The translations under genes were made by a program, and so were the position numbers. Below the pieces are notes generated by a model, which was not told the DNA's origin, did not search any database, and worked only from the letters and a program-made list of their open reading frames with translations. 64,000 bases of DNA from Acidobacteriota bacterium (GTDB taxonomy: Bacteria > Acidobacteriota > JBCCFW01), in NCBI GenBank assembly GCA_039029535.1, contig JBCCFW010000004.1, forward strand, positions 41,512-105,511, written 5' to 3'. Positions 399-32,684 of this stretch are shown piece by piece (within the stretch, counting starts at the first letter, position 1; every line of letters starts with the position of its first letter).

Positions 399-1094
399 TC
401 AGCCTCCAGCCGCCAGGAGTCGTCGAGCTTCGTCGACCTGCTGATCGAGCGAGCCTTGGAGCAGGCCACGCACGTGCTCGAGCTCGTCCGCGTCGGCCCG
501 GAGCGGCACTTCGATCGGTTCGCCGATGGTGATCGCCACCCGACTGCCTGGCTTGGGGACGAGAAGACGATCCCAGGAGCGCAGCGTCCAGGCCGAGGTC
601 AGGGCGGCTCCCATGGGCAGGAGCGGGGCGCCGCTCACTTGAGCCAGCACCACGGCGCCGAGCTGGGCCTCGTGGGCCGGACCGCGGGGACCGTCCGGTG
701 CCAGGAAGACGGCCTGCCCGTCTTCCTTCAATCGACGTCGGAGCTTGGTGAGGGCCTGACGCCCGCCCCGCGAGGTCGAGCCACGGACAGAGTCGGCTCC
801 CCAGGACCTCAGCACGGACGAGCCCAGCTCGCCGTCGCGGGAAAGGCTCACGAGGAAGGTCGGTCGCACTCCTCGTTCACGGAGACGGGAGATGAGGAAG
901 GCCGACACCGGCAACACCCGTCGGTGCCAAGAGCAGGGGATGAACGACCGCTGGTCGTCGAGGAGCGCGGCGAGCGCCTCCTCACCGGACCGATGCGCCG
1001 GTCGTCGGCTGGTGCGCAGCAGCACGCGCGTCATCAGGGACGCGGGCCAGGCTGCACAGCGCATGGCGAGTCGTTCGAGCCGGGGACTCATCAC
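399..1094 (-). CDS. lysophospholipid acyltransferase family protein (DUF374/LPLAT-like)
   Basis: 231-aa ORF with GTG then ATG start (MMSPRLERL...). Composition and length fit small membrane-associated acyltransferases. It is the last enzyme of the fatty acyl-AMP ligase/ACP/acyltransferase operon. Confidence 0.5.
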   Translation of the reverse strand: MMSPRLERLAMRCAAWPASLMTRVLLRTSRRPAHRSGEEALAALLDDQRSFIPCSWHRRVLPVSAFLISRLRERGVRPTFLVSLSRDGELGSSVLRSWGADSVRGSTSRGGRQALTKLRRRLKEDGQAVFLAPDGPRGPAHEAQLGAVVLAQVSGAPLLPMGAALTSAWTLRSWDRLLVPKPGSRVAITIGEPIEVPLRADADELEHVRGLLQGSLDQQVDEARRLLAAGG

Positions 1095-1125
1095 CCCGAA
1101 TCATGACAGTTCTAGCCCGAACGGT

Positions 1126-1320
1126 TGATGAGTGTTCGTCGCGAGCGGCCGGAGACGCCAGCCGAGAAGGGTGAAACGTAGCGACGAGGCCCGCGGCTCA
1201 ATCCGGTGGGAACCGGGGAATGAGAGTCGGAAGCGCACTTGGCGGTGCGTTGAGGAGCCGAGGGGCGAAAGCACGCCCTTCGGAGGCAGCGGATCTGGTC
1301 GCGCAGCAGGAGACTCATCA
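1126..1320. repeat. copy A of a ~190-nt conserved element with closing inverted repeat (TGATGAGT...ACTCATCA); candidate structured RNA
   Basis: About 80% identical to 15203-15384. Conserved blocks include CCGAGAAGGG, GGCTCAATCCGGTGGGAACCG, GGAATGAGAG and GGTGCGTTGAGGA. Stems are conserved while loops differ (CGCAC-TTGGCG-GTGCG vs CGCAC-TTGATG-GTGCG; GGGCG-AAAGCA-CGCCC vs GGGCG-AGTA-CGCCC). The element lies in the intergenic space between the ACP and acyltransferase genes. Confidence 0.5.
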
Positions 1321-1334
1321 ACCGTCCGGGCCGC

Positions 1335-1580
1335 TCAAGGACTGGCGAGTCCGTCCACGAGGGCGAGCAGCGCGCCGACGGTCGCGATGTCGTCGTCCAG
1401 GTCCTCGGGCATCTCCAGCTCGAGCTCGTCCTCCAGCTCTGCGATGAGCTGCACGGACTTGAGCGAGTCGATCCCCAGGTCGGCGACCAGCTCGAGCTCG
1501 TCGGTGAGCTCGCTCTCGGCCCGACCGGTGAGTCGAGCGAGGGCAGCCAGGACGGCTGCGCGTGGCGTCGGGCTGCTCAC
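1335..1580 (-). CDS. acyl carrier protein
   Basis: 81-aa acidic protein with phosphopantetheine-attachment motif DLGIDSL. GTG start overlaps the upstream TGA (GTGA). Confidence 0.85.
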   Translation of the reverse strand: MSSPTPRAAVLAALARLTGRAESELTDELELVADLGIDSLKSVQLIAELEDELELEMPEDLDDDIATVGALLALVDGLASP

Positions 1581-3271
1581 GAAGACTCCTCCGAAGGCAG
1601 CTCGAAGCGGTCGAGCTGCTGCGCCAGGTAGAGACGACGGAGCTCCGCACGGCGGACCTTGCCGCTGCTCGTCTTGGGGACCTGACCCCGTCGGACGAAG
1701 ACCAGGTCCGCCAGCGGCAGGCCCAGGGCACGTCCGAGGCGACTGCGGACCTCGGAGTCGAGAGCGCGGAGCGCCGCGTCGTCGCGGCCGGAGACCTCCA
1801 TGACCAGCACGGGCTCCTCACCGGAGCCGTCGCGGGCGACGGCGAACGCGCCACAGCGCTCGCTGCCGCCACCGCCCGCGGCCTCGTCGGCGAGCCACTC
1901 GAGCTCGTGCGGCATGACATTGTGACCGCGGAGAACGAGGATCTCCTTGTGGCGACCCACCGGGTAGAGCTCGCCATCGTGGAGAAAGGCGAGGTCGCCG
2001 GTGTCGAGCCAGCCGTCGTCGAAGGACTCGTAGGTGCCGTTCGGATCGTCGTAGTAGCCGTCGCAGAGGCTGGGTGCCTTGACCCACAGCCGACCGACCT
2101 TGTCCTCGCCGAGCACCGTGCCGTCGGGTGCGCGGACTTCCAGCTCCGTGTCGGCCACCGGTCGACCATTGCAGGTGACCTCTTCGAGCTCCCAGCCCTC
2201 GGTGCTGCCTTCCGGCGGTCGTCGGAAGCGCGGCCCCTCGCCGCGGTCGTCGAAGGTCACCGCGAGGGTCGCCTCCGCCAGGCCATAGCAGGGACGTAGG
2301 CTCGAGGCGGAGAATCCGCAGGACTCGAAGCGTTCGAGGAAGCCACGGACCGTCTCGGGTCGGACCATCTCGGCGCCCACCAAGGCAGCCTTCCAGCCCG
2401 AGAGGTCGAGGCCGGTCAGCTCCTCGTCGCGCACGCGCTCGGCGCAGAGCTGGTAGGCGAAGTTGGGGGCCGGCGAGAGGCTGGGGGCGCCGGTGGCCAG
2501 GGCCTGCAGCCAGGCGCGGGGCCGTGCCAGGAAGGCTTCGGGCGCCATGAGCGTGAGGTCGAAGCCGCAGCGCAGTGAGAACAGCAGGCCGCCGACCAGG
2601 CCCATGTCGTGGTGCATGGGCAGCCAGGACACCATCCGCTCGAGCGACTCGGCCGCCGTCGAGCCCAGGGGCTGACCGATGGAGAGGTTCGAGGCATAGG
2701 TGTCGTGGAGGATCGCGCGGTGGCTGATGACCCCCGCGCGACGCTTCCCGGTGGAGCCGCTGGTGAGTTGGAGGAAGGCCGTCTGGTCAGGGTGGATGTC
2801 CGGCAGAGCACCGGTGACCGGCGTGAGCTCCTCCAGCTCTTCGGGAGTGACGACACGCTCGGCGATGGCCCTGTCGCCGCGCTCGGTCAGCTGCTCGCGC
2901 AGGTGAGTCGAGCCCACGATGACCCGGGGCGTGAGGGCCTCGGCCGCGTGGACGACTTGGGCCAGGGCCTGCTCCTTCCCCCCGAGCACGCCCGCCGGTG
3001 CGACGGCCGCGGGCCAGGCACCCCGGAGCACGGAGCCGAGCCAGCAGTCGAGGAGCGAGAAGCCCAGCGGCAGGCAGAGGAGGACGCGGTCCTCCGGCTG
3101 GACCCCGTGACGATGGAGACGGCCGGCCTGCGCCTCGGCGATCTCTCCCAGCTCACGCCAGCTCCGCGCTCCGATGCTGCGGCCGCGGCGGTCGAGGATC
3201 TCCAGGCCGCGGTCGGGGCGCGGAGGAGCGAGCAGCAGTTCCTTGAGGCTGAGGGGCGAGTCGGGTGTCAT
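1577..3271 (-). CDS. fatty acyl-AMP ligase / AMP-dependent synthetase (FAAL family)
   Basis: 564 aa with adenylate-forming core motifs (LTSGSTGKRRAGVISHR, YGLAEAT, SSGKVRR, GWLDTGDL). Encoded directly upstream of the ACP gene. Confidence 0.85.
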   Translation of the reverse strand: MTPDSPLSLKELLLAPPRPDRGLEILDRRGRSIGARSWRELGEIAEAQAGRLHRHGVQPEDRVLLCLPLGFSLLDCWLGSVLRGAWPAAVAPAGVLGGKEQALAQVVHAAEALTPRVIVGSTHLREQLTERGDRAIAERVVTPEELEELTPVTGALPDIHPDQTAFLQLTSGSTGKRRAGVISHRAILHDTYASNLSIGQPLGSTAAESLERMVSWLPMHHDMGLVGGLLFSLRCGFDLTLMAPEAFLARPRAWLQALATGAPSLSPAPNFAYQLCAERVRDEELTGLDLSGWKAALVGAEMVRPETVRGFLERFESCGFSASSLRPCYGLAEATLAVTFDDRGEGPRFRRPPEGSTEGWELEEVTCNGRPVADTELEVRAPDGTVLGEDKVGRLWVKAPSLCDGYYDDPNGTYESFDDGWLDTGDLAFLHDGELYPVGRHKEILVLRGHNVMPHELEWLADEAAGGGGSERCGAFAVARDGSGEEPVLVMEVSGRDDAALRALDSEVRSRLGRALGLPLADLVFVRRGQVPKTSSGKVRRAELRRLYLAQQLDRFELPSEESS

Positions 3272-7632: not shown

Positions 7633-8390
7633 TCGCGGTTCCAGTCCAGGGCCAGCGCGCAGGCCCAGAGGAAGGCTGCCGCCACGCCGAGGTAGTAGCA
7701 GAGACCGGAGAGGCTCACGATGCCGCGGCTGAAGGCGGCGTGATGCGGGGCGATGGAGACCCAGTCGTGAAGCAAGGTTCCCAGCGACAATGACGGCGCC
7801 ATCCCGTCGAGGACGGGCACGACCCTCTCGTTGCCGGCGAGCACGAAGAGGAAGGAGAGCACCGCGGCGCTCACGAACGAGACGATCTGGTCGGCGGTGA
7901 GGGCAGAGACGAAGGAGCCGAGGCCGAGCAGCATGGCGCCGAGCAGGAAGGAGCCCAGGTAGCCGGCGGCGATGCGACCGAGGTCGGGGTCACCGAGCAC
8001 GATGAGCATGACCACGATCGGCAGGGTGCCGAGGAGCATGACCGCGAGCAGCACGAGCCCGGCGAGGAACTTGCCGAGCACCGCTTCGACCGAGCGAATG
8101 GGGAGGGTCAGCAGCAGCTCGATGCTGCGGACGCGTCGCTCCTCGGACCAGGAGCGCATGCTGATGGCGGGCACGAAGAGCGGGAGCAGGAGGGGGAGCA
8201 GCTCGAAGAAGCCGCTCATGTCGACGAGCCCGGTGAGGAAGAACTCGTTCATGAAGATCGAGCTGGCGAGCACGACGAAGGCGATGCCGCAGACGTGGAC
8301 GATCTTCGAGTCGAAGATGGCGGCGACCTCCCGCTCGGCGACGAGCAGGACGGGACGCCAGGACGGCAGGTGGTCGGCCAGGCTGCTCAT
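7629..8390 (-). CDS. ABC-2 type transporter permease
   Basis: Polytopic membrane protein with six hydrophobic helices. Start taken at the internal ATG at 8390 (MSSLADHLPSW...), which overlaps the ATPase TGA (ATGA). The longer ORF-track N-terminus is a low-complexity Arg/Pro artefact. Confidence 0.7.
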   Translation of the reverse strand: MSSLADHLPSWRPVLLVAEREVAAIFDSKIVHVCGIAFVVLASSIFMNEFFLTGLVDMSGFFELLPLLLPLFVPAISMRSWSEERRVRSIELLLTLPIRSVEAVLGKFLAGLVLLAVMLLGTLPIVVMLIVLGDPDLGRIAAGYLGSFLLGAMLLGLGSFVSALTADQIVSFVSAAVLSFLFVLAGNERVVPVLDGMAPSLSLGTLLHDWVSIAPHHAAFSRGIVSLSGLCYYLGVAAAFLWACALALDWNRE

Positions 8391-9139
8391 GCCTTCGCTC
8401 CTTCGCCGGCCGTGGCGGTCTTGCGACCGGCCTGCACGATGTCGAGCAGCACGCGCTCGAGGTCCTGGTCGCCGGCCTCCTTGCGGAGCTCGTCGACGGG
8501 GGTGTCGGCGAGGAGTTGGCCCTCGTTGATGACGAGGAGTCGGTCGGAGACCGCGACGACCTCGGCGAGAATGTGGCTGGAGAAGAGGATGGCCCGGTCC
8601 TCGCGGAGGTCGCGGAGGAAGTCGCGGAAGGCGACGACCTGGACGGGGTCGAGCCCGTGGGTCGGCTCGTCGAGGAGGAGCACGGGCGGGTCGTGGATGA
8701 GGGCAGCCGCCACGCCGATGCGCTGGCGATAGCCCTTCGAGCACTCCCGGCACCACTTCGCGAGGACGGCCTTCAGGTCACAGGCGTCGATGCACCACTC
8801 GAGCCGCTCCTGGAGCCGGTCGCCGGAGAGGCCGCGCATCCGCCCCATGAAGCGGAGGAAGCGGTCGACCTTCATCCCCTCGTAGAGGGCGGAGTGCTCG
8901 GGCAGGTAGCCGAGGAGCCGACGGACGGCGAGAGGCTCGCGGACGACGTCGTGACCGTCGATGGCGATTCGGCCCGCCGTGGGGAGGAGCCAGGTCACCA
9001 TCATCTTCAGGAGGGTGGACTTCCCGGCGCCGTTGGGGCCGAGGAAGCCGACGATCTCGCCCGGGTCCATCCGGAAGGAGACCTGGTCGACGGCCTTCAC
9101 CGGACCGAAGTGCTTGCTGACCTCAGAGACCTCAATCAT
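8387..9139 (-). CDS. ABC transporter ATP-binding protein
   Basis: Walker A GPNGAGKST, ABC signature LSKGYRQR and Walker B LLLDEPT. Confidence 0.9.
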   Translation of the reverse strand: MIEVSEVSKHFGPVKAVDQVSFRMDPGEIVGFLGPNGAGKSTLLKMMVTWLLPTAGRIAIDGHDVVREPLAVRRLLGYLPEHSALYEGMKVDRFLRFMGRMRGLSGDRLQERLEWCIDACDLKAVLAKWCRECSKGYRQRIGVAAALIHDPPVLLLDEPTHGLDPVQVVAFRDFLRDLREDRAILFSSHILAEVVAVSDRLLVINEGQLLADTPVDELRKEAGDQDLERVLLDIVQAGRKTATAGEGAKA

Positions 9140-9364
9140 GAGCTTCCGTTCCCACCGTGCGGACGGTCGAGACAGAGAACCTGGATCAGGAGGGGGCCGA
9201 GGTCAAGGTTTGGGCGGATCCTCGAAGGCAGACGAGCGGTGAACGAGAGTTCCGGAGATGTCGACGTGTCCTCCCTCTCTCATCAATGGCTGGTCGCTCC
9301 GCTGCTGCTCAGTCGCTCCGGTAGAATCCTCGCTTGCCTCGCACGCTCGGGGTGGAGGGGGCTG

Positions 9365-9988
9365 ATGACACTACCGACGAAGGGGAGCCGGCGGCTCGTG
9401 CATGACGGCACGGCCTATCGCTGGTTGCTGACCTCGCGACAGGACCTGCTCCACCTGACCGTCGAGCTCGACGAGGAGCCCGGTCAGGTTCTGCGGGCCT
9501 TCTTCGAGCCTCATGACCAGTACCGGCGTGGCGAGGACAGGCGATGGTCCTTTCATCGTCAAGGACGTGAGGTCACGCCGTCGCTCGTGAGCCGGGTCGT
9601 CGGCCACGGGCTTGCCAACGGCTGGGAGCCGGCGGTGAGAGGGAAACCGCCGCTCGAGATCTACACCTGGCAGGTCGAGGACCTCCCGAAGGTTGAGACC
9701 TCCGAGGACGAAGTGGCCCTGCGGGAGATCGCCGCCGCCGAGGTCACCGACCTGCTGTTCGACATCAGCACCGATGCGGCATGGCGTCAGCGTCTCTTCG
9801 ACGCGCCCGTGCATCAGCGAATCTCCATCCCCGAGGAGGAGCTGTCGAGGCGCGTTCGCGGTCTCGGCCTGCGCTTCGCGGTCTTCAATGACGGGTGGTT
9901 GGGCGACGGCTTCGTCGTGTTCGGCATCGAGTCGGTCGACTTCTCCCACGTGGTCATGTACACCACCAACAACGCCAGCATCATCTGA
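9365..9988 (+). CDS. hypothetical protein
   Basis: Internal ATG at 9365 preceded by GGAGGGGG. The upstream part of ORF-track entry 8516..9988 is antisense to the ABC ATPase gene. Confidence 0.45.
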   Translation: MTLPTKGSRRLVHDGTAYRWLLTSRQDLLHLTVELDEEPGQVLRAFFEPHDQYRRGEDRRWSFHRQGREVTPSLVSRVVGHGLANGWEPAVRGKPPLEIYTWQVEDLPKVETSEDEVALREIAAAEVTDLLFDISTDAAWRQRLFDAPVHQRISIPEEELSRRVRGLGLRFAVFNDGWLGDGFVVFGIESVDFSHVVMYTTNNASII

Positions 9989-10000
9989 CGGAGATGCCCG

Positions 10001-10462
10001 ATGAACGTGACACTCCGAGAAATCACCGCCGACACCGTCGTGAGCATCATCAAGCTCACCGTTGCCGAGAGCCAGAAGGGCTACGTCGCGAGCAACTCCG
10101 TGTCGCTCGCCCAGGCGCTCTTCCAGGAGGAGGCGTGGTACCGCGCGGTCTACCTCGACGACGAGCCGGTCGGCTTCGTGATGCTCGAGGATGACTCCCT
10201 GGCCTCGGAGCCTCCCGACGAGCCGGGCGTCTACCTCTGGCGCTTCATGATCGACGAGAAGTTCCAGGGCCGTGGGATCGGCAAGGCCGCGCTGGAGCTC
10301 GTCATCGAGCACGTCCGCACGAACCGCACGGCACCGAAGCTCACGCTGTCGTACGTGCCCGGACCCGGTGAGCCCGCCGACTTCTACCGGGGTTTCGGCT
10401 TCGAGCCCACCGGTGAGGTCGACGAGGGTGAGATCGTCATGGCCCTGGAGATCGCTCGTTAG
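10001..10462 (+). CDS. GNAT family N-acetyltransferase
   Basis: 153 aa with the acetyl-CoA binding motif QGRGIGKAAL. Confidence 0.8.
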   Translation: MNVTLREITADTVVSIIKLTVAESQKGYVASNSVSLAQALFQEEAWYRAVYLDDEPVGFVMLEDDSLASEPPDEPGVYLWRFMIDEKFQGRGIGKAALELVIEHVRTNRTAPKLTLSYVPGPGEPADFYRGFGFEPTGEVDEGEIVMALEIAR

Positions 10463-10480
10463 CTGAGCGCCGTTCGCGGC

Positions 10481-12427
10481 TCACTTGCCCTTTGCGACGC
10501 TCCCGACCACGAGGTACTGGTCCAGGTCGAAGCCGAGCGTGTCGTCGAAGGTCAGCTCGGACTCCAGCTCGGGGTGAGCGGTCACCGGCTCGAGCGTGAG
10601 CAGCTCCACCCGACCCTCGCCCCAGGTGTTGCTCTCGGGGAGCTGCTTCTTGTCGAGGTGGCTCCAGCGGAGCAGGCTCACCTGCTCGTCGTCGAGCTCA
10701 CCCGACACCACGTCGAGCACGTCGGCGACCTGCACGACCAGCGCCCGTCGGTAGGTCTCGAGCTGCTCGATCGTCGGCACCTCGGTGATCTCGGAGATCC
10801 GACAGCGCACCTGCACGCGAGGAGCCGGCGTGCGGGAGGCGATCGCGGTCGTCACGAGCGACGCCCGCTGAGCGACCTTCTCGTCCGGAAGACGACGCGC
10901 CAGGAGCATGAGCTTCTCGAGACGACCCGACCACGAGTCGCGTCCGTCGGCGAGGCTGCCGATCGAGAGCTCGGCCTCGGTGAACCCACCGAAGGGATGA
11001 CCGGCCGGGATGGCACGGACGTTTTCGCCGTTCACGAACACCGCACCTTCCGCACCGTCGAGAGTGACGATCAGGTGCGCTGGCGAGGCCCCGCCGCCCG
11101 GCAAGGGCGCCAGCGTGACGAAGTCCTTCCGGCCGGGCCAGAGCCCTCTCAGGTCAGCGCCGCTCTGCTTCAACACGAGCCCGGACCACGACAGCAGCAC
11201 GCCGTCCTGAGGACCGTCCGGCGTGATCGTCATCTCCACCGTGAGCGCTTCCTTCGTGGCCACGTGATCGACCAGCGGCGACGGAACCGTGCCGAAGAAG
11301 CGGCCGCGTCCGAGCTGCATGTCATGACGCGAGCCGTAGCGGGCCCGACCCGCCGGGGTGAGCCGACAGTCGAGGCCTCGACCATCGGGCCCCGGCACCT
11401 GGTTCGACGCCGTCGCGACGTCCCAGCCGAACACCGCGTCGGTCTCGTCGGGCGGCCAGGTCGTTCGCGTCGCCTTCGTGGAGCCGCCATCGGCGGGGTC
11501 CTTCGGTCGCGTGCGTGCCACCGTGCCGGCCGGCCGCTCGTGGTTGGTGGCGACGAAGAGGTCCGGGTAGCTGGCGAAGCCACCGCCGGTGCTCAGGCGG
11601 AAGCAGCGGCTCGTCGAGACCTGAACGACGTAAGCCTCACGCTTCGACTCCTTCTTCGAGTCCCCCTGGGCGGCGATCCAGTCGTCGTCGTTGCTCCAGT
11701 GGTGGTTGTCCCAGCGCCGATCGGGCAGGCAGCCGCTGGCCCAGACGCTGACGAGCTCACCACCGCCCCAGGGCTGGAGCTGGAGCTCCTCGTGGCTGCC
11801 CACGTTGTTCATGATCCGCGAGCCGTCGGGAGAGGTGCCCGACGAGCAGCCGCGTGCGTACTTGCGATGGCTGCGCTGCACGAGGTCGATGGCGTAGAGG
11901 TCGTGACCCCAGCGCATGGCCAGGCGCGTGCCGTCCGCGGAGATGCCCGGCTCGCCCGTGTACTGACCCGGCAGCTCGAGCGAGCGCTGGACGCCCGTCT
12001 CGACATTCACCGCCCAGACACGATCTTCCTCGGGCTTCATGAAGACGATCTCGCGACCGTTGGCGTGGAACTCGAGCGCGCAGCCGTGCTTCTCCCAGGC
12101 ACCTTCGACCAGGGGCTTGCGCTCCTGCCCCTCGGCATCCCACAGCTCGATGCGACCGGCTCCCTCGCCGGTCCGGACGAAGACGGCGAGACGCGTACCG
12201 TCGGGGCTCCAGCGGGCGTAGTCGCCCGCGCCGAGCTCGCGCTCGCCTTCGGTCCCGACGTCGACCCGGAGGACGCGACCTTGTCGGGTGAACACCACCG
12301 AGCCCTCGATGAGTGTCGAGAGGCCGCCGTGGGCGGCGTCGGGCTCCGGCAGGGGAGGCGGCGCGGGGGCGCTCGAACACGATGCGGTGGCTAGCCAGAG
12401 GAGCACCGCTACGAGGAGGAGACGCAT
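10481..12427 (-). CDS. lipoprotein with TolB-like WD40/PD40 beta-propeller
   Basis: Start at the internal ATG at 12427, giving MRLLLVAVLLWLATASC with lipobox ASC. Repeated ...SPDG(T/S)R... beta-propeller blades. Last gene of the AlgJ/AlgX operon. Confidence 0.6.
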   Translation of the reverse strand: MRLLLVAVLLWLATASCSSAPAPPPLPEPDAAHGGLSTLIEGSVVFTRQGRVLRVDVGTEGERELGAGDYARWSPDGTRLAVFVRTGEGAGRIELWDAEGQERKPLVEGAWEKHGCALEFHANGREIVFMKPEEDRVWAVNVETGVQRSLELPGQYTGEPGISADGTRLAMRWGHDLYAIDLVQRSHRKYARGCSSGTSPDGSRIMNNVGSHEELQLQPWGGGELVSVWASGCLPDRRWDNHHWSNDDDWIAAQGDSKKESKREAYVVQVSTSRCFRLSTGGGFASYPDLFVATNHERPAGTVARTRPKDPADGGSTKATRTTWPPDETDAVFGWDVATASNQVPGPDGRGLDCRLTPAGRARYGSRHDMQLGRGRFFGTVPSPLVDHVATKEALTVEMTITPDGPQDGVLLSWSGLVLKQSGADLRGLWPGRKDFVTLAPLPGGGASPAHLIVTLDGAEGAVFVNGENVRAIPAGHPFGGFTEAELSIGSLADGRDSWSGRLEKLMLLARRLPDEKVAQRASLVTTAIASRTPAPRVQVRCRISEITEVPTIEQLETYRRALVVQVADVLDVVSGELDDEQVSLLRWSHLDKKQLPESNTWGEGRVELLTLEPVTAHPELESELTFDDTLGFDLDQYLVVGSVAKGK

Positions 12428-12432: not shown

Positions 12433-13482
12433 CTATCCGGGTTCGGAGCTGGGGGGAGGCGGCACGGGGACCTTCCGCCAGCCGCTGGCCTGCGTCAGCT
12501 CGCGGGCGGTGAAGCACCACACGACGGCGCGCTTGCCGGCCAGCCACGACGGATCGCGGCGTGCCTTGCGGAACAGGCTGATCCGCGCCGGCGTCGCACC
12601 GGAGCCCCGCACGCCGAGGACGTCGACCCGACGACCGAGACGCCGCGCGAGCTGCTCGGGGAGACCGGCACCCTTGGCGTGAAGGTCGGCCCCGACCGAG
12701 AACACGAGCACGTGCGAGTCGCCCAACACGAGGACGGGGCTCTCGGGGTCGCTCGCGAGCGGCTCGAAGCCCGCGTCGGTCTTCGTGCCGATGAAGTCGA
12801 GCGTGAGCTGCTCCTGCGCCGGTCGTTCTTCCAGCTCGCGCCAGAGGTCGCCCTCGATGGTGATCGTCCGCGGCTCGGCGACGAATCCACCCGGTCCGGC
12901 TTCGAGCGCCTTCGTGTCCAGCAGTTGCTTGGCGGTCTGCTCGGCGGCGAGCTCGATGGCCGGCCCCGCCCAGTGCGTGTCGCTGCGACAGTAGGGCGCG
13001 CGCTTCGGGTCGGCCCGGAGGGACTCGAGCTCGGGCAGCAGGTCGAGCACGGTGAGGCCGGACTCGCGGAGGAGCTTCAGGAACTCGAGGTGCGTCGCGC
13101 GGGCGGCGGTGGGGTCGGTCGCGGTCTCACCCGGTAGCTTCGCGTGATGGACCAGCGCCTTCGGCGGCACCGGCACGAGGACGAGCTCGATGTCGTGCGC
13201 GGCCAGCCCTTCGCGGAAGTCGAGGATGGCCGGGAGAGGGTCGGCCTCGGCAGGCTTGCGCGCTCGCGAGACCTTCGCGGCGTTCTCCCCCCAGAACGGA
13301 CCCGCCGCCACGTGGCGCAGGTCGGAGGGGAGGAACAGCCAGTCGTCCTTGCCGCGGATGACCGACTCGTCGCGGGACTTGGCCTCCTCGACCAGACGCG
13401 CGCAGCGGTCGACGAGCTCCTCGGCTGACGCCGACACGGCGAGGCCCGCGGCCACGATGAGCAGCAGCCGAGCGAGGCTCAT
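12433..13482 (-). CDS. AlgX/AlgJ-like SGNH-fold polysaccharide O-acetyltransferase family protein (periplasmic)
   Basis: Signal peptide MSLARLLLIVAAGLAVSASA. Family signature D-x-H-W (CRSDTHWAGP). ATGA overlap with the upstream gene. Confidence 0.6.
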   Translation of the reverse strand: MSLARLLLIVAAGLAVSASAEELVDRCARLVEEAKSRDESVIRGKDDWLFLPSDLRHVAAGPFWGENAAKVSRARKPAEADPLPAILDFREGLAAHDIELVLVPVPPKALVHHAKLPGETATDPTAARATHLEFLKLLRESGLTVLDLLPELESLRADPKRAPYCRSDTHWAGPAIELAAEQTAKQLLDTKALEAGPGGFVAEPRTITIEGDLWRELEERPAQEQLTLDFIGTKTDAGFEPLASDPESPVLVLGDSHVLVFSVGADLHAKGAGLPEQLARRLGRRVDVLGVRGSGATPARISLFRKARRDPSWLAGKRAVVWCFTARELTQASGWRKVPVPPPPSSEPG

Positions 13483-15188
13483 CGCAGGACCTCGAGGTCT
13501 TCGATCCACAGCGGTTCTTCGAACAAGAGATCCTCGTCGTCGAGCTCGCTGCGAGAGAGACCGCCGAGCTCGTCTTCCACCTCGGCCCAGGGCCGGAGCG
13601 TCATCTTCACGCGTTGACCCGGTCGCAGCCTCGCGGCCGGCGTCCAGCGATGATCTCTCATCCCGTGAACGTGCGCGAGCAGCTCGGTCGCCGGTTCGTC
13701 GTTCATGAGATCCGTCGAGACCGGGTCGGCCAGGTGGAGCGTCATGACGTGGTCGGCGTAGGGCACGCTGCGGGGGCGGGGCACCACCGAGGCGGCGAGC
13801 ACCGTCGCCTCGACCACGCCGCTCCAGCCGTCGGGCGCGGTGACGAAGCGCGAGGGGCGCGGCTCACCGAGCACCAGCGGCAGGACTTCCCAGTCGCCGA
13901 ACGACAGCTCGCGTTCGGCGAGCTCCCAGACGACGACCTTCTTGTCGGCCAAGCGATCGCGACCCGAAGCGAGCTCGCGGTGCAGCACGCGGCGGCTCTC
14001 CACCGCACCACCCGCGTTGACGGCGATGCGATCGACGGGGGCCTCGAGCTCGAGCGCGAGTTGCTCGGCGAGCCCCGCGTCCTCGCCCCAGCCCAGTGAC
14101 GGCAGCGAGAAGACGTTGGTGAAGCTGTCGCCGAGCAGGAGAACCTCGGCCTCGCGCGACGGACGCCAGGTCTCGGACGCTGCGGTGCTCACGCGGCGGA
14201 GCTCGATTCGCTGCGCCGGAAAGCGGTCCTGCTCCTCGGGCAGCGACAGCATCCGCACGATGTCGCCTTCACCGTCGACCGTCGCGGCGTCACCACGCAG
14301 GCGAGCGGTGCCCGTGCGGACGCCGAGATCGCGGAGCGTCGTGGCCAAGCGAGCCGCCGCCAGCTCGACGGCAATCGGTGACCAGTGGCTGTCGGTGCGG
14401 AGGAACACCTCGTCTCCACGAGCCAGCGCGAAGAGCTCCGCCCGCAGGTCGACGACGGTGACGCCCGACTCGGCCAAGGTGGCGAGCAGGTCGCTGGTCG
14501 ACGGGTTCTGCAGCGCCGCGTCGAAGCTGCCGCTGGCGAGCTGCTCGGGATGGATGGCGGCCTTGCCGGGAACCGGCAGCACGACGAGCGCGATGTCGCG
14601 TTCGGCGAGGTCACGGTGGAGCTGAAGGATGGCCGGCGTCGGATCGATGCCGGGGACCGCATCCCAGCTCGGAGCGGCGTCGCGTCGGGACTCGACGTGG
14701 CGAGCGTCGTGGAAGGCCGGACCGGTGAGGTGGTCGACCCCCGGTCGAAAGAACAGCCAGCCCGGGCGGCCGAGGTAGCTGTCTTCGGTCCCTTGACGCA
14801 GTGCTCCCGACATCAAGAGACGGACGGGCGAGACCAGCCCCGCATTCAGGAAAGACGCGTCTTCGAGGGAGCGCTCGTGAGCGGTCATCCCCGCCAGGAG
14901 GCGCCGATTGGCCGCGAGGAGCCCTCTGAGCCCACCACCGGCTTCCCGATGCGCGGCGGGTAGGCCGGGCAGCACGTGCAGCAGGTCGAGCACCGAGGGC
15001 AGGGCGGAGCTTCGTTCGCCACGTCGGTGGGACGCGAGGTCGAGTCCTGCCTGCACGAGTGGGACGACCAGCAGCAGGAGCACGAAGCCGAGGCTCAGCG
15101 CGCGTGCGACGCTGGGCTCGACCTCGGTGTGCCCGATCTCGACGTGGGCCTGGGCCTCGCGGTCGGTGGTCCGGTTGGGGGCGGACAT
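13479..15188 (-). CDS. AlgJ-like membrane-anchored polysaccharide O-acetylation protein with C-terminal extra domain
   Basis: N-terminal TM anchor and signature LRTDSHWSP. Start chosen at ATG 15188 (alternative 15206). Confidence 0.55.
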   Translation of the reverse strand: MSAPNRTTDREAQAHVEIGHTEVEPSVARALSLGFVLLLLVVPLVQAGLDLASHRRGERSSALPSVLDLLHVLPGLPAAHREAGGGLRGLLAANRRLLAGMTAHERSLEDASFLNAGLVSPVRLLMSGALRQGTEDSYLGRPGWLFFRPGVDHLTGPAFHDARHVESRRDAAPSWDAVPGIDPTPAILQLHRDLAERDIALVVLPVPGKAAIHPEQLASGSFDAALQNPSTSDLLATLAESGVTVVDLRAELFALARGDEVFLRTDSHWSPIAVELAAARLATTLRDLGVRTGTARLRGDAATVDGEGDIVRMLSLPEEQDRFPAQRIELRRVSTAASETWRPSREAEVLLLGDSFTNVFSLPSLGWGEDAGLAEQLALELEAPVDRIAVNAGGAVESRRVLHRELASGRDRLADKKVVVWELAERELSFGDWEVLPLVLGEPRPSRFVTAPDGWSGVVEATVLAASVVPRPRSVPYADHVMTLHLADPVSTDLMNDEPATELLAHVHGMRDHRWTPAARLRPGQRVKMTLRPWAEVEDELGGLSRSELDDEDLLFEEPLWIEDLEVLR

Positions 15189-15202
15189 GCAACCCGGACT
15201 CT

Positions 15203-15384
15203 TCATGAGTGTTCGTTGCGAGTGGCTAGCCGAGAAGGGCGCACGTAGCCGCGAAGCCCGTGGCTCAATCCGGTGGGAACCGCGGAATGAGAGCCGGAGG
15301 CGCACTTGATGGTGCGTTGAGGACCGAGGGGCGAGTACGCCCTTCGCAGGCAGCACATCTGGTCACGCAGCAGGAGACTCATGG
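15203..15384. repeat. copy B of the ~190-nt conserved element (candidate structured RNA), closing inverted repeat TCATGAGT...ACTCATGG
   Basis: Aligns to 1126-1320. The closing-helix change G..C to C..G is compensatory between copies. Lies in the intergenic space upstream of the AlgJ-like gene. Confidence 0.5.
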
Positions 15385-15399
15385 AGTGTCCGGGTTTCG

Positions 15400-17880
15400 T
15401 CACTCGACGGGGAGGAGGTCGAAGCACGGCACGGGCCTGCCGCGAAGGTCGCGGACGAAGTCGCGATCGGGGTCGCGAGTCTGACAGTAGCTCGCTGTGG
15501 TCGGGAGCGCGAGGGGCGTGGCGGTCTCGACCCGGACCGTGGTGCCGAAGCCGACGATGGAGATGGCGGTGGCCTCAGGCCCGGCGCCGTCGTCGTAGTA
15601 GAAGAGGTTGGCGTGAAGACCGCCGCCGTCGAAGCTGACGAAGCCGTCGAAGACGTAGTCGACGTACGAGCCTCCCGGTCCCGGCTCGATGCGCACGAGC
15701 TCGACGAGCGAGTCGACGGGCTCGCCGAAGAGGTGCTCGCGCACGGCGTCGGCGAAGCGCACGCCGAGCCTCTTGTACGACGCCGTGTCGAAGTGGAAGT
15801 CGTCGATGCGCGCCGAGTCCATGGTCGTGACGAGATGGGCGTTGACGTCCTCCTCCACGATCAAGCGCTGAGCCTCGCGTATGCGGTTCATCTCGGTGCG
15901 GCTCGGTCCGTCCGAGGTCGCGAGCTGGGCGATGAAGAACGGGAGCTGCGACTGACGGAGGTCGAAGCGGACGAGGGCGAGGAAGTCACGGAGGAAGTCC
16001 GCGTACTCGGTGGTCGAGAGAGCGCCGGCATCGGACTCACCTTGGAACCAGAGCACGGCGGTCAGGCCGTTGCCGTCCTGCTCGAGCACGCGTCGGAGGG
16101 CGTTGCCGTAGAGGCTGCCGTGTCCGAAGGGCGCGTCGTCGTCCCGTTGCCAGTCCGTGCGGATGTTCGTCCCACCCCTTGGTGCCGGGATGATGCCGAC
16201 GGGAAAGCCGGTGCTGGCGTGGATCTCCTTGCCGAAGCGCAGCATGAGGGAATGGGTGGCCTGAGCATCGCCACCGCCGTCGTCGGCCGCCACCGCCTCG
16301 CGCTCGTTCACCGGGTCGTCCATGGGCTCCTGGCCCCGCTTCCAGAGACCGTCGGCGTGGAAGACGTGGACCTCGTCATCGGGTGACTCGATCGGCGAGA
16401 ACGGATCCATCAGGTCGCCGCGGCCCGACATGTTGCTCTGACCCGCGCAAAGGAAGACATCGCCCACGCCCACCTCGAGCAGGGTGTCGTTGCCGAGCAG
16501 GGTGAAGTCGGACTGACGAACGAGCTGCACCTCGATGTCGTAGTTGCCGCCGGCCGGCACGTCGAGGAGCTCGAAGTCGAGCCAGGCGCCGTCGGGCTCC
16601 GCCCCGGTCAGAGTGAGCCGATGGTCTGCGAAGCCGTGCCCTGGCACGAGCGCTCCGCTGTCGCTCTCCAGAACGCGGGCCTGGAGCCAGGCGGGACCGT
16701 CATGACGCAGGTGCAGCCGCAGCGGAATGGTCGCTTCGTCGAATTCGTCGCGCTGGAAGACCTTCCAGTCGTCGGACCACTCGTGATGCCGTCCGATCAC
16801 CAGACCATCCGGTCCCGGCTCCTGGCAGGCGGTGATCCGCTTGATCGGGCGGAGGCCACCGCCCCAGTCACTCATCGCCGAGTGGATGCCCGTGAACTGC
16901 GTGTCGCCGGCGATGTCGAAGATCGCCTGGTCGTCGAGCCAGGTGCTGCTCATGTCGTCGAAGAAGTCGACATGCAGCCGCGAGGTCGTGCCGGCTCCCT
17001 TGCGGAGTCGGAGACGCAGCCGGCGCGAGTCGGGTCCGGTGGGTCCGGCGACCGAGGTCGTCGTCGCGTCGCGTCGTCGCTCGATGAAGTGGAGATCGCC
17101 AGCGTCGCGCACCTGGAGGATCACGCCGGCGCCGGACTGCCACGAGCGGACACCGTCGCTCCAGAGCTCCAGCGAGAAACGACCCATGCCGGGTCCGTAG
17201 TCGACCCACACCGTGGTGTCGAGCTGACGACCGCGGGCGGCGACACGCGAGAACTGCTCGTTCGTGCCCCCATCTCCCGATCCGAACGCGACGACGAGAT
17301 CGGGATCCGGATCGTCGATGACGCCGACCTGGAAAGACATGTTTTCGCTACCGCGCGTCCGCATGTCGGCGGGACGCATCATCGTGATGTCGTCCTCGAA
17401 GGTGTAGGTCTTCGGGTCGCAGGCGTCGCCGATGCCGTCCTCGTTCTGGTCCGCCTGGTCGGGGTTCGCCACGTCGGGGCAGTTGTCGAGCGCACCCTCG
17501 ACGCCGTCGGCGTCCGGGTCGAGGTCGACGACGCAAGGAACGCGGTTCGGTCGCGTCACTCCCTGGCTGGTCGTGCCCAGGGTGCCCTCGCCCGCCGTGT
17601 CGAAGGCGGTGACGAACACGTAGGTCAGCCCGCTCGGACGCGGCCAGTCCGGGGGGACGACCGAGGTCCCCATGACGTCGGGGAGCCGGCACTCGTGGTC
17701 GAAGGGCCGGAGGCTGTCTCCCGCGTGGACGGCGTAGCCGAGCGCACCGGGGACGGGGTCCCAGGTCAGCGTGTCGGCGACCCAGCGGAGGTTGGTGACC
17801 TCACCCGGCTGCGCGCGTGCCGTGTCGAGGCCGGTGGCCAGCAACACGACGACGAGCGCGCAGCGGGCGAGCCGGCTCAA
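15400..17880 (-). CDS. secreted sialate O-acetylesterase-like (SASA/DUF303) carbohydrate esterase with thrombospondin type-3 repeats
   Basis: Signal peptide MSRLARCALVVVLLATGLDTARA. TSP3 Ca-binding repeats (DNCPDVANPDQADQNEDGIGDACD). C-terminal esterase hallmark GQSNMSGRG. TTG start overlapping the upstream stop. Confidence 0.7.
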   Translation of the reverse strand: MSRLARCALVVVLLATGLDTARAQPGEVTNLRWVADTLTWDPVPGALGYAVHAGDSLRPFDHECRLPDVMGTSVVPPDWPRPSGLTYVFVTAFDTAGEGTLGTTSQGVTRPNRVPCVVDLDPDADGVEGALDNCPDVANPDQADQNEDGIGDACDPKTYTFEDDITMMRPADMRTRGSENMSFQVGVIDDPDPDLVVAFGSGDGGTNEQFSRVAARGRQLDTTVWVDYGPGMGRFSLELWSDGVRSWQSGAGVILQVRDAGDLHFIERRRDATTTSVAGPTGPDSRRLRLRLRKGAGTTSRLHVDFFDDMSSTWLDDQAIFDIAGDTQFTGIHSAMSDWGGGLRPIKRITACQEPGPDGLVIGRHHEWSDDWKVFQRDEFDEATIPLRLHLRHDGPAWLQARVLESDSGALVPGHGFADHRLTLTGAEPDGAWLDFELLDVPAGGNYDIEVQLVRQSDFTLLGNDTLLEVGVGDVFLCAGQSNMSGRGDLMDPFSPIESPDDEVHVFHADGLWKRGQEPMDDPVNEREAVAADDGGGDAQATHSLMLRFGKEIHASTGFPVGIIPAPRGGTNIRTDWQRDDDAPFGHGSLYGNALRRVLEQDGNGLTAVLWFQGESDAGALSTTEYADFLRDFLALVRFDLRQSQLPFFIAQLATSDGPSRTEMNRIREAQRLIVEEDVNAHLVTTMDSARIDDFHFDTASYKRLGVRFADAVREHLFGEPVDSLVELVRIEPGPGGSYVDYVFDGFVSFDGGGLHANLFYYDDGAGPEATAISIVGFGTTVRVETATPLALPTTASYCQTRDPDRDFVRDLRGRPVPCFDLLPVE

Positions 17881-20800
17881 GGATCGATGGGCCGGAGGTC
17901 GAAGCAGGGCACCGGCGTGCCCCGGAGGTCGCGGAGGAAGTCGTCTTCCTCTCGCTGCGTGAAGCCGTAGCTGGCGGTGGCCGGGAGCGTGAGGGCGCGG
18001 GAGAGCGTCACGCGCACGGTGTTGCCGCCCATGACGGTCACGCCGGTGGCGGTGGGGCCCGTGTCGTCGTTGAAGCGGAAGAGCTCGGGATCGAGACCAC
18101 CGTCGACGAACTCGACCTCGCCGTCGAAGGTGAAGTCCACCGAGGAGCCACCCGGGCCGACCTGGACGCTCGTGAGGTGCACGAGGGCGTCGAGGGGCTC
18201 GCCGAGCAGGTGCTCGCGGACGGCGTCGGCGAAGCGCACGCCGAGCATCTTGTAGCTGTCCGCGAAGAAGTGGTAGTTGTCGAAGCGCAGGGCGTCGATG
18301 GCCGTGATGAGGTACGCGTCGGCGTCACGCTCCACGACCTGGAGCTGAGCTTCGCGGATGCGCAGGAACTGTCGGTTGCCGACGGCGGTCGAGGTCGCGA
18401 GCTGGGCGATGAAGAACGGCAGGTCCGGCTGACTCAGGTCCGATCGGAGCTGGGAGATGAGCCGCTCCAGGTCGTCGCGATACTGCTCGAGTGTCCTGTT
18501 GTCGGCGGCGTCGGACTCGCCCTGGAACCAGAGCACGCCGGCGAAGCCGTTGGGATCGTTCTGATCCCGCGCCCGACGCATGGCGTTGCCGTAGAGCGAC
18601 TCGTGGGAGTCGGGGTCGTCGACGTCGCGCTGCCACTCGTCCCAGATGGCGGTGCCGCCTCGAGGCGAGGGGATGATGCCGACGGGCAGGCCCGTGCTCG
18701 CGTGGACCTCCTTGCCGAAGCGGAGCATGGGGCTGTGACCGGCGTCGCGGGCACCGCCTCCGTTGTCGGCTGCCACCTGCTCGCGCTCTCCGGTCGCGTC
18801 GTCCATGGGCTCCTGGCCCATCTTCCAGAGACCGTCGGCGTGGTAGACGTGGACCTCGTCGATCGGGGTCTCCGCGTCGGCCATGTCGCCGCGTCCGGAC
18901 ATGTTGCTCTGACCCGTGCAGAGGAAGACGTCGCCCACGCCGAGCTCGACGAGCATGTCGCTGCCCAGGAGGGCCATGTCCGAGCTGCGCACGAGCTGGA
19001 CTTCGACGTCGTAGTTGCCGCCGGCCGGCACGCGGTCGAGATCGAAGGACACCGTCGCCCCATTCGGTGCGGGGTCGGAGAGGTCGAGCTGATGGTCCGA
19101 CCAGTCGTGGTCGGGGACGACCGTGCCGGTGTCGCTCATGACGACGCGGGCTTGCAAGAAGGCCGGCTCGGCGTGACGGACCTGGAGCTGCAAGGGGATG
19201 GTCGCTTCGTCGAAGTCGTCACGCTGGAAGACCTTCCAGTCGTCGGACCACTCGTGATGACGCCCGATGGTCAGGTCGGTCGGACCGGGCTCCGGACAGA
19301 CCGTGATGCGCTTGATCGAGCGACGTCCCTGGCTGAAGTCGGCCATGGCGGTGTCGACGCCGATGAGCGCGCTGTCGTCGACGACGTCGAAGATAGCTTC
19401 GTCCTCGGACCAGCTCCCGGCGATGAAGTAGTCGACGTGGAGCCGTGAGGTCGTGCCGGCGCCCTTGCGCAACCGGAGCCGCAGCCGACGCGAGTCGGGG
19501 CCGCGGGGGCCGGCGACCGGCGTGGCGACGCCCTGATTCTGGAAGCGCTCGATGAAGTAGAGGTCGTTGCGGTCGTCGACCTGGAGCATCAGGCCGGCGC
19601 CGGACTCCCAGCGGAAGGCGCTGTCGCTCCACATCTCGAGGGAGAGCCGGCCGTTGAACGGGCCGTAGTCGAGCCAGACCGTCGTGTCCTGACGGTGGCC
19701 GCTGGCGCGCACGCGGGTGAACTGGTCGTTGGTGCCGTCACGGTCGGAGCGGTACGACGCGGCGAGCTCGCCCTCGACCATCCGCACGAGCAGGGTCTCG
19801 TCGAGACCTCCGTAGGACAACATGTCGGCGGGGCGGCCGTCGATGAGGTCGTCCTCGAAGGTGTAGGTCTTCGGGTCGCAGGGGTCACCGATGCCGTCGT
19901 CGTTGTGGTCCTCCTGGTCGAGGTTCGACGCGAACGGGCAGTTGTCGCAGGCATTGCCGAGGGTGTCGGCGTCGTCGTCGAGCTGCTCGGGGTTGGCGAG
20001 ACCGAGACAGTTGTCGCAGTCGTTGCCGGCGTCGTCCACGTCGTCGTCGGCCTGGTCGGCGTTGCTCAGGCCCGGGCAGTTGTCGCAGGCCTCGTTCGTG
20101 CCGTCGCCGTCGCTGTCTTCCTGGAACGGGTCGAAGTCGTCGGGGCAACCGTCGCAGGCGGTGCCGACGTCGTCGGCGTCTGGGTCCTCTTGCATGGGGT
20201 TGGCGAGACCGGGGCAGTTGTCGCAGGCCTCGCCGGTGCCGTCGCCGTCGGTGTCTTCCTGGAGGGGATCGGCGTCGTCGGGGCAGATGTCGCAGGCACT
20301 GCCGAGCCCATCGACGTCGGGGTCGTCCTGCGTGGGGTTGGCGAGACCGGGACAGTTGTCGCAAGCCTCGCCCGTGCCGTCGACGTCGTCGTCGGCCTGG
20401 TCGTCGTTGTCGAGGGCCGGGCAGTTGTCGCAGGCGTCACCGTGGGTGTCGGCGTCGGAGTTCTGCTGGTCCTCGTTCGAGAACGTCGGGCAGTTGTCGC
20501 AGGCACTGCCCAGGGTGTCGAAGTCGAGGTTCTGCTGGTCCTCGTTGTCCACCGTCGGACAGTTGTCGCAGGCGTCGCCGAAGCTGTCGGTGTCGGAGTT
20601 CGCCTGGTCCGCGTTGGCGACCATCGGGCAGTTGTCGTCGGGGTCGCCGATGCCGTCGAGGTCGAAGTCGGGAATGCAGGGCGCGAGGTTGGGGGTCGGG
20701 TTGCCCAGGCTGTCGGTCCCGAGGGTGCCCTCGCCCTCGCTGTTGACGGCGGTGACCAGGACGTAGGTGAAGCCCGTCGGACGCGGCCAGTCGGGGGGGA

Positions 20801-21068
20801 CGACCGAGGTCTCGGTGATGCCCGAGATCCGGCAGTCGTGGTTGTACATCCACGGGGTCTCGCCGGCGTGGACCGTGTAGCTGGTCGCGCCGGGCACGGG
20901 ATCCCAGGTCAGCGTGTCCGCGACCCATCGCAGGCCGGTGACCTCACCGGGTTGGGCCTGGGCGAGGCTCGTCCCGAGGGTCAGCGCCAGGAGGAGCAGC
21001 AGGCCTCTTGAGTGAAGGGTCCGTGGTGAGCGCACGACGTCATCCCGCGAGCGCGGCGGCAGCCGCAC
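17877..21068 (-). CDS. secreted sialate O-acetylesterase-like carbohydrate esterase, paralog with expanded TSP3 repeat array
   Basis: Same architecture and GQSNMSGRG motif as 15400-17880, with about ten tandem D-x-D-x-DG...DNCP repeats. Confidence 0.7.
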   Translation of the reverse strand: MRLPPRSRDDVVRSPRTLHSRGLLLLLALTLGTSLAQAQPGEVTGLRWVADTLTWDPVPGATSYTVHAGETPWMYNHDCRISGITETSVVPPDWPRPTGFTYVLVTAVNSEGEGTLGTDSLGNPTPNLAPCIPDFDLDGIGDPDDNCPMVANADQANSDTDSFGDACDNCPTVDNEDQQNLDFDTLGSACDNCPTFSNEDQQNSDADTHGDACDNCPALDNDDQADDDVDGTGEACDNCPGLANPTQDDPDVDGLGSACDICPDDADPLQEDTDGDGTGEACDNCPGLANPMQEDPDADDVGTACDGCPDDFDPFQEDSDGDGTNEACDNCPGLSNADQADDDVDDAGNDCDNCLGLANPEQLDDDADTLGNACDNCPFASNLDQEDHNDDGIGDPCDPKTYTFEDDLIDGRPADMLSYGGLDETLLVRMVEGELAASYRSDRDGTNDQFTRVRASGHRQDTTVWLDYGPFNGRLSLEMWSDSAFRWESGAGLMLQVDDRNDLYFIERFQNQGVATPVAGPRGPDSRRLRLRLRKGAGTTSRLHVDYFIAGSWSEDEAIFDVVDDSALIGVDTAMADFSQGRRSIKRITVCPEPGPTDLTIGRHHEWSDDWKVFQRDDFDEATIPLQLQVRHAEPAFLQARVVMSDTGTVVPDHDWSDHQLDLSDPAPNGATVSFDLDRVPAGGNYDVEVQLVRSSDMALLGSDMLVELGVGDVFLCTGQSNMSGRGDMADAETPIDEVHVYHADGLWKMGQEPMDDATGEREQVAADNGGGARDAGHSPMLRFGKEVHASTGLPVGIIPSPRGGTAIWDEWQRDVDDPDSHESLYGNAMRRARDQNDPNGFAGVLWFQGESDAADNRTLEQYRDDLERLISQLRSDLSQPDLPFFIAQLATSTAVGNRQFLRIREAQLQVVERDADAYLITAIDALRFDNYHFFADSYKMLGVRFADAVREHLLGEPLDALVHLTSVQVGPGGSSVDFTFDGEVEFVDGGLDPELFRFNDDTGPTATGVTVMGGNTVRVTLSRALTLPATASYGFTQREEDDFLRDLRGTPVPCFDLRPIDP
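19886..20681 (-). repeat. tandem array of thrombospondin type-3-like Asp-rich calcium-binding repeats (coding, inside esterase paralog)
   Basis: Repeated ...(A/E)CDNCP(G/T)(L/V)(A/S)N(P/E)DQ(x)D(x)D(x)DG(x)G... units visible at protein and DNA level. Confidence 0.75.
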
Positions 21069-21305
21069 TCCGTCCTTTTTCTACATTTACCTGAAGGAAA
21101 CCTAGGCGGCCGAGTCAGGGGCTGTCAACCGGCCTGGAGCGGGTCTTGGAACACCGACGAGACGGAGCTCCGAGATCTCCGCCGACATCGGGTCCTATCG
21201 GCACGGAGGGGGAACGGAATCAGTGAATTCCGGGAGCCTGGGGCCCCGGGCCCAGGTCGGGTCCGGGGCGCTCGTGGGGAGGTCAGGAGCCCGCGACGCA
21301 GGCTT

Positions 21306-32173: not shown

Positions 32174-32212
32174 GCCCGGTCTCCTGGTTGGTCGGGGTGA
32201 GTGGTGCATGGA

Positions 32213-32243
32213 GCGTCCGGACCGGCATCGTCGGTCCGGACGC
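32213..32243 (-). terminator. perfect 12-bp stem-loop (GCGTCCGGACCG-N7-CGGTCCGGACGC) between precursor A and lanC; probable attenuator or processing hairpin
   Basis: Perfect inverted repeat read directly. No U-tract follows, so partial termination or transcript stabilisation is more likely than full termination. Confidence 0.5.
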
Positions 32244-32259
32244 GTCCACCGCGTTCGGA

Positions 32260-32460: not shown

Positions 32461-32550
32461 GGTCAGGCTTCCTCTCATTGATTGATTCGGTCTTCGGTAG
32501 GCACGGCCGACTGAGTGCGGGTGGTGGTGCGCGTGAGCGGCCGTCGTCTC

Positions 32551-32579
32551 CCTGTACAGCTCCTCGTGCGGGACCTGAC
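32551..32579 (-). promoter_or_regulatory. conserved cis motif GTCAG-N15-CTGTACAGG, copy upstream of precursor A (about 90 nt from the ATG)
   Basis: One of four copies with identical 15-nt spacing (also 32949-32977, 36365-36393, 38731-38759). Confidence 0.5.
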
Positions 32580-32665: not shown

Positions 32666-32684
32666 CGCCACCGAGCTCACTCGA

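Follow-up and report, generated by a model that had tools for sequence, protein, structure and literature searches.

A structured, non-coding element present twice in a gene array of an Acidobacteriota bacterium, tentatively read as a self-folding intercistronic repeat

Two copies of one element, here called A and B, lie within a long array of minus-strand genes in the window, the whole stretch of 64,000 nucleotides of Acidobacteriota DNA that was analysed. Copy A is preceded, in the direction of transcription, by a gene for an acyl carrier protein (ACP; 1335..1580, minus strand, PF00550) and followed by a DUF374 gene (399..1094, minus strand, PF04028, E = 2.8e-21). The ACP gene overlaps by 4 nt a gene for a fatty acyl-AMP ligase (FAAL; 1577-3271, minus strand, PF00501 and NF006624). 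Copy B follows a gene for a SASA-type carbohydrate acetylesterase with a TSP3 repeat (15400..17880, minus strand, PF03629 and PF02412) and precedes one for an AlgX-domain, SGNH-like acetyltransferase (13479..15188, minus strand, PF16822, E = 3.2e-32). An earlier note on this DNA had described both copies as intergenic and surrounded by minus-strand genes, and the domain assignments agree with that description. The array also encodes ABC-transporter components, a second AlgX, a second SASA, an LPG-synthase-TM protein, and a hexapeptide transferase.

Copy A lies in a junction of 240 nt and copy B in one of 211 nt. Elsewhere in the array, the junctions that were checked measure −4 to +36 nt, some of them taken from a crude GC3-based gene map that missed genes and from which only called ORFs were used. 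A gap of 237 nt at 21069-21305 on the minus strand contains a promoter-like site, TTGACA-18 nt-TAGGTT at ~21100-21135, and, ahead of the GTG at 21068, the ribosome-binding site AAGGA; the promoter-like site was found by eye, as a near-consensus sequence, and not by a promoter scan. This gap is likely to be the start of the transcription unit that holds copy B. Since the site precedes the gene starting at 21068, copy B comes after the second gene of this probable unit.

Other features of the region can be described in their own right. The SASA-esterase genes at 15400-17880 and 17877-21068 (minus strand) are tandem paralogues, 71-85% identical in blocks, and the longer one contains nine tandem units of 69 nt (19875-20645) coding for thrombospondin type 3 repeats. 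On the minus strand, 25459-33069 is taken up by the genes of a class I lanthipeptide cluster, with a C39-peptidase ABC exporter (25459-27657), a LanB dehydratase (27654-30857; PF04738 and PF14028), and a LanC cyclase (30854-32209; PF05147). Upstream of these genes are two 117-nt repeats, 91% identical (32350-32466 and 32754-32870), within small ORFs. One of these repeats reads ...MTKNNVKKLVLNKDTLRQLDADELQDVQGG-VAVPKSKRKSTCGCTKCKKRGCG, and they probably represent precursor-peptide genes in tandem whose leader is of the GG type.

Copy A spans 1115..1331 (217 nt; ends from blastn and nhmmer, covariance model score 260 bits) and copy B spans 15192..15395 (204 nt; ends from blastn and MAFFT, 242.6 bits). 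The element itself is assigned to neither strand, and on the + strand the two copies are in register with each other. The two related copies recognised in the earlier note are real, with ends slightly longer than it gave: blastn aligns them with 81.4% identity over 215 columns (E = 3e-54). A MAFFT alignment of 1112-1334 with 15189-15398 contains 33 substitutions and four indels (9, 1, 1, and 2 nt) over 223 columns, a count that includes three flanking columns on each side. The longest exact word common to the copies is at most 21 nt, and the element has a GC content of 63-67%. Similarity between the copies ends abruptly on both sides and the sequence outside them is unrelated, which is not the picture of a segmental duplication.

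The ends of the element are inverted, imperfect repeats of the form (G)CCCGRAC...GTCCGGG(C), which close a 19-bp terminal helix in both copies; in copy B the CCCGRAC...GTCCGGG pattern covers 15193-15394. In copy A the left arm of this helix is 1115..1133 (GCCCGAACGGTTGATGAGT), where RNAalifold pairs columns 4-22 with 202-220 and blastn finds a self-inverted match at 1133-1115, and the right arm, also from the RNAalifold pairing, is 1313..1331 (ACTCATCAACCGTCCGGGC), 3 nt from the ACP stop codon (1335-1337). The left arm of copy B is 15192..15210 (ACCCGGACTCTTCATGAGT), 3-4 nt away from the AlgX-like ATG at 15188-15186, and its RNAalifold-paired right arm is 15377..15395 (ACTCATGGAGTGTCCGGGT), ~5 nt from the SASA stop codon (15400-15402). 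Both copies thus begin 3-5 nt past the stop codon of the upstream gene, and the distance from the helix to the downstream start is ~20 nt in copy A and 4 nt in copy B. The immediate 5-nt flanks, left and right, are TTCTA and CGCTC for copy A, and ATGCA and TTCGT for copy B; no target-site duplication, direct repeat, or TA was found at the flanks of either copy.

Inside the terminal helix, the best-conserved part is a core block (GGCTCAATCCGGTGGGAACCGGGGAATGAGAG; A 1195..1226, B 15262-15293), identical at 31 of 32 nt in the MAFFT alignment and predicted by RNAalifold to form a bulged hairpin with pairs at columns 83-88/113-118 and 91-96/101-108. The conservation of this block extends over its internal loops. 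Two further hairpins were defined from the alignment and RNAalifold, each with a kept stem and a variable loop. The first (A 1232..1251, B 15299-15318) has the stem GCGCAC/GTGCG, which counts 8 bp on the + strand, G-U pairs among them, and 5 bp on the minus strand. In the second, CCGAGGGGCG-loop-CGCCCTTCGG (A 1259..1282, B 15325-15346), columns 151/168 form a G-U pair when read on the + strand and an A-C mismatch when read on the minus strand. The details on which the earlier note had based its proposal of a structured RNA are all present in the alignment: the loop differences (TTGGCG vs TTGATG, and AAAGCA vs AGTA), the maintenance of the CGCAC/GTGCG and CCGAGGGGCG/CGCCCTTCGG stems, and the exchange of G-C for C-G in the closing helix. 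To this exchange can be added three more two-sided changes, at columns 4/220, 13/211, and 35/190.

The predicted stability of the element was compared with that of dinucleotide shuffles. For the whole element the folding z-scores are −7.9 (+ strand) and −4.0 (minus strand) for copy A, and −4.9 and −3.5, respectively, for copy B. With the terminal helix removed, the core of copy A scores −4.2 on the + strand and −0.9 on the minus strand, and that of copy B scores −1.9 and −2.5. The RNAalifold consensus for the + strand contains 68 pairs, of which four are compensatory (columns 4/220, 13/211, 16/208, and 35/190; the first three lie in the terminal helix), eight are changed on one side through G-U, and none is broken. 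It consists of the terminal helix, an irregular extension of that helix, and four local hairpins. The minus-strand consensus has 62 pairs with three compensatory changes.

A less circular measure than a count on a consensus fold, applied here to two sequences only, was obtained by folding one copy alone and asking how many of its pairs are broken by the substitutions of the other, in comparison with 5000 random re-placements of those substitutions. With copy A as the reference, three broken pairs were counted on the + strand where 11.1 ± 2.1 would be expected (P = 0.0002), and eight on the minus strand where 14.1 would be (P = 0.004). With copy B as the reference, the values are eight against 14.7 on the + strand (P = 0.003) and seven against 12.8 on the minus strand (P = 0.002). 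Broken pairs are thus far fewer than random placement would give, and so the two copies have diverged under a constraint on pairing. This conservation of the fold between A and B is the strongest positive result of the analysis and belongs to a comparison of two sequences.

The pairing constraint is visible on both strands, and several observations bear on which of them carries it. Over the union of both consensus structures there are 17 G-U cells for the + strand and six for the minus strand, and among wobble sites that lie between Watson-Crick pairs six favour the + strand and two the minus strand. The + strand is rich in G and in purines, and the sense (minus) strand is C/U-rich, with 76 C and 46 G in the core of copy A. 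The whole-element z-scores and the wobble pairs therefore lean towards the + strand, and the core-only z-scores are mixed. Every flanking gene is antisense to the + strand of the element, and at neither copy does this strand have a promoter-like site or conserved sequence beyond the element. In contrast, a minus-strand RNA of the element is made whenever the operon is transcribed.

Several known classes of element were considered. A search of the whole window with Rfam 15, which presumably holds the EAR/epsC model, gave no matches at the gathering thresholds, and permissive Rfam scans of the two copies reached at best 16.2 and 18.5 bits, where the thresholds would have demanded 40.6 and 39. 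The Rfam scan is in keeping with the absence of riboswitch consensus sequences that had been judged by eye in the earlier note. No intrinsic terminator and no sigma-70 promoter was detected at the copies on either strand, so the element is neither of these. Occlusion of the ribosome-binding region is not a feature common to the two copies and is possible in copy B only. A hammerhead ribozyme was set aside because the UGAUGAG of copy A reads UCAUGAG in copy B and no Rfam match was obtained, and ARAGORN found nothing resembling a tRNA or tmRNA. Integron attC sites have core sites RYYYAAC ... GTTRRRY, are 57-141 nt long, and lie downstream of cassette ORFs. Judged by eye, the ends of the element (GCCCGAAC/ACCCGGAC with GTCCGGG) do not fit these core sites, its length is 204-217 nt, and its neighbours form a conserved FAAL-ACP-acyltransferase unit and are not cassettes. 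REP/BIME sequences are high-copy palindromic units of 20-40 nt, most of which bear a GTAG or CGTC tag (PMC3733652); the present unit, of ~210 nt with a branched interior, is far larger.

The nearest parallels are found among small repeats of other bacteria. ERIC and Correia are bacterial MITEs of ~100-200 bp with terminal inverted repeats, whose RNAs pair between their 5′ and 3′ ends (PMC2229807). They are located in transcribed intergenic regions, alter the stability of adjacent mRNA via RNase III or RNase E, and affect neighbouring cistrons in an orientation-dependent manner (PMC2229807). Like ERIC/IRU and Correia/NEMIS, the element is small and non-coding, has inverted termini, and sits in an operon spacer. 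The usual marks of a MITE are a target-site duplication, TA termini, and A+T richness (PMC2229807). The element, a non-coding unit of 204-217 nt with imperfect inverted termini of 19 bp, has the form of a MITE, but it has no target-site duplication or TA ends, is GC-rich, and is known from two copies. A MITE had been named in the earlier note as the alternative that would count against an RNA regulator: the terminal inverted repeats speak for it, and the target-site duplications that should accompany them were not found. Furthermore, ERIC and Correia each form one long imperfect palindrome, whereas the element has four branched local hairpins and a conserved block, and it shares with them no sequence similarity and has no candidate parent IS.

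Comparison with relatives of the locus is consistent with an insertion. Other Acidobacteriota-like contigs (L016, at 8001-10766, and L017-L019) also carry the trio of FAAL, ACP, and acyltransferase genes as a conserved unit. Its third member is a DUF374 gene in L016 and Lip_A_acyltrans in L017-L019, and the junctions before this third gene measure 5-47 nt. An AurF-like gene lies directly upstream of the trio in L016. The source is a metagenome-assembled genome at NCBI, labelled Acidobacteriota (protein MEM7244032.1), and its FAAL protein has a best database relative of no more than 53% identity. L016, with 53% protein identity, is the closest FAAL-ACP-DUF374 operon and has 47 nt between ACP and DUF374, without the element; in loci L017-L019 only 5 nt precede the acyltransferase gene. 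No trace of the element was detected with nhmmer in any of these four loci. The short L016 gap, together with the position of the element 3-5 nt after the upstream stop codon, gives it the look of an insertion, and since the relatives that lack it are as distant as 53% identity, insertion here and loss there are not separable.

The search for further copies, which the earlier note had proposed, brought none beyond A and B in the collections covered. Only these two were found in the 64-kb window by blastn, nhmmer, and an unfiltered covariance model. The 18-mer CTCAATCCGGTGGGAACC gave 15 matches among 185,579 species genomes, about the number expected by chance, and no match extends beyond ~20-29 nt; the pattern CGGTGGGAACCN{1,6}GAATGAGAG gave five matches, at chance level, in the JGI metagenomes. 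Four scans of viral contigs (IMG/VR) yielded nothing or chance matches, and one contig that came up there, L044, is unrelated. These genome, metagenome, and IMG/VR scans rely on exact words and may miss diverged relatives, so that absence from them is weak evidence. Plasmids and phages contained no match by blastn in 'distant' mode. At the protein level, the translated ORFs, a six-frame concatenation of both copies, and, separately, a profile run against 1.84 billion representatives returned repetitive-protein noise only. Look-ups of the exact proteins of the source FAAL gene and the AlgX-like gene had no entry. Neither the window nor any collection covered contained a parent IS or a transposase whose ends match, and the termini have no counterpart in the window but themselves.

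One observation hints at a larger family. Two Logan contigs from SRR22824298, which came up in exact-protein look-ups, are identical to the window and of the same strain, and both break off inside copy A: the end of L042 is at window position 1197 and the start of L043 at 1157, and 39 nt are not covered. If Logan assemblies use k = 31, this pair alone should not break the assembly graph, since A and B have no exact word above 21 nt in common. The two breaks within 40 nt would then suggest further near-identical copies in the SRR22824298 sample, and low coverage, such as a drop over a GC-rich hairpin, could also account for them.

Taken together, the element is non-coding and structured, and it lies outside the known Rfam classes. 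The reading that we prefer, at a confidence somewhat short of an even chance, is a self-folding repeat of the ERIC/Correia type, restricted to one lineage, that lies between cistrons and is co-transcribed with its operon. The element looks like a unit inserted into the short spacers of a long minus-strand operon for envelope and polysaccharide modification, or duplicated from one spacer to the other. It would have spread by transposition or another copy-and-insert process, in the manner of MITEs, ERIC, and Correia, and would be transcribed passively within the operon mRNA. The insert may be tolerated, and its fold selected, since the terminal helix would loop it out. By doing so the helix would bring the upstream stop codon, 3-5 nt off, next to the downstream start, 4-20 nt off; a ribosome terminating at the stop would melt the 5′ arm and so free the 3′ arm by the next start. 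The geometry of the junctions suggests such a coupling of stop to start. Any effect on expression would be post-transcriptional and not a matter of ligand sensing, through translational coupling or through processing or stabilisation by RNase III/E. Against the repeat reading, besides the missing marks of a MITE and the lack of a matching IS or transposase in the window and the collections covered, only two copies have been demonstrated, 14 kb apart in one gene array, and the branched hairpins and the 31/32-nt block look more like a dedicated RNA than the remnant of a transposon.

The best-placed alternative, which we regard as unlikely but worth weighing, is a dedicated cis-regulatory RNA on the sense (minus) strand, acting as a sensor, a protein-binding leader, or an EAR-like antiterminator for the DUF374 and AlgX-like genes. 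The conserved fold and the compensatory changes in the closing helix are as expected for such an RNA, as is a nearly invariant block that spans internal loops. Both copies have the same orientation to transcription and precede genes of the acyl/acetyl-transfer type, and with 4 nt between the 3′ arm of its helix and the ATG, copy B could mask the ribosome-binding region. As in riboswitch aptamers, which have a P1 closing helix and a multi-stem junction, the closing helix shows compensatory changes, several hairpins meet at a junction, some unpaired nucleotides are conserved, and enzyme genes lie downstream. It differs from riboswitches in having no shared expression platform, in its intercistronic position 3-5 nt after a stop codon, and in being known from one genome only, with no match to a curated class. 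The resemblance to EAR is of a similar kind. EAR lies between cistrons, after the second gene of the Bacillus eps exopolysaccharide operon, and acts in processive antitermination (PMC7858274). Both are structured RNAs of ~100-200 nt, and copy B, after a second gene, is at a comparable operon position. Unlike EAR, the element has no Rfam match, occurs in two copies of which the second lies a long way downstream, is of uncertain strand, and has no terminators near either copy in a scan that covered the surroundings of the copies.

Other findings count against a sense-strand regulator more generally. It has neither a terminator nor an expression platform common to the copies, and the start after copy A, behind a spacer of ~20 nt, is not occluded. 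The whole-element thermodynamics and the wobble pairs lean antisense, and the sense strand is C/U-rich. The homologous operon of the nearest relative is without the element, the genome, metagenome, and protein collections yielded no similar sequence, and Rfam offers no match. The proposal of the earlier note, a structured cis-regulatory RNA upstream of acyltransferase genes, therefore divides into two parts: a non-coding element with a conserved, stable fold is well supported, and a sense 5′ RNA that regulates acyltransferases is unsupported and somewhat disfavoured. In its most specific form, this would be a new class of intercistronic regulatory RNA, responsive to a ligand or protein or acting by antitermination or processing, which co-ordinates two acyl/acetyl-transfer modules of a cell-envelope operon in an uncultured lineage of the Acidobacteriota and whose closing helix couples stop to start. 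We consider that form improbable, and a new cis-regulatory RNA in general to be somewhere between improbable and unlikely.

A functional molecule produced from the + strand is more doubtful again. It could be a structured small RNA with its own promoter, or a structure of single-stranded DNA used in recombination or transposition. The better whole-element fold of the + strand in both copies argues for it, along with the excess of G-U cells and of Watson-Crick-flanked wobbles, the G- and purine-rich composition seen in many structured RNAs, and the smaller number of pairs of copy A that are broken on this strand (three vs eight). Against it, neither copy has a promoter-like site or a conserved flank on the + strand, and the core-only z-scores are mixed between the copies. 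The ends are not attC-like, a length of ~200 nt is far above REP size, and no integrase, RAYT, or transposase was noticed beside either copy.

A small Arg/Cys/Ser-rich protein, read from minus-strand ORFs of 69 and 74 aa that start at a shared ATGAGT, is highly improbable: the open frame is kept from the common ATG across most of the element in both copies, but a 1-nt indel shifts the frame of the last third, where the DNA is still conserved, the substitutions in the part read in a common frame fall 4/5/5 on codon positions 1/2/3, amino-acid identity is 66-67% and so lies below the nucleotide identity of 81-86%, frames of ~60 codons are estimated to arise roughly 1 in 5 times by chance at such a GC content, and 5.8 billion clusters and 1.84 billion representatives contained no homologue, only repetitive-protein noise. 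The poor protein-level conservation of these ORFs seen in the earlier note thus stands, and the pattern of conserved protein that it had set against an RNA is absent from these two copies.

The significance of the element depends on which reading is correct. If it is a self-folding repeat only, its value lies in adding a case from a phylum that has been sampled poorly, and in showing how a tightly coupled operon can tolerate an insertion, with ends that pair so that the insert loops out between the stop codon of one gene and the start of the next. If instead it is a dedicated regulator, it would represent a new class of RNA tied to the acylation of envelope lipids and polysaccharides, a field with few known RNA regulators.
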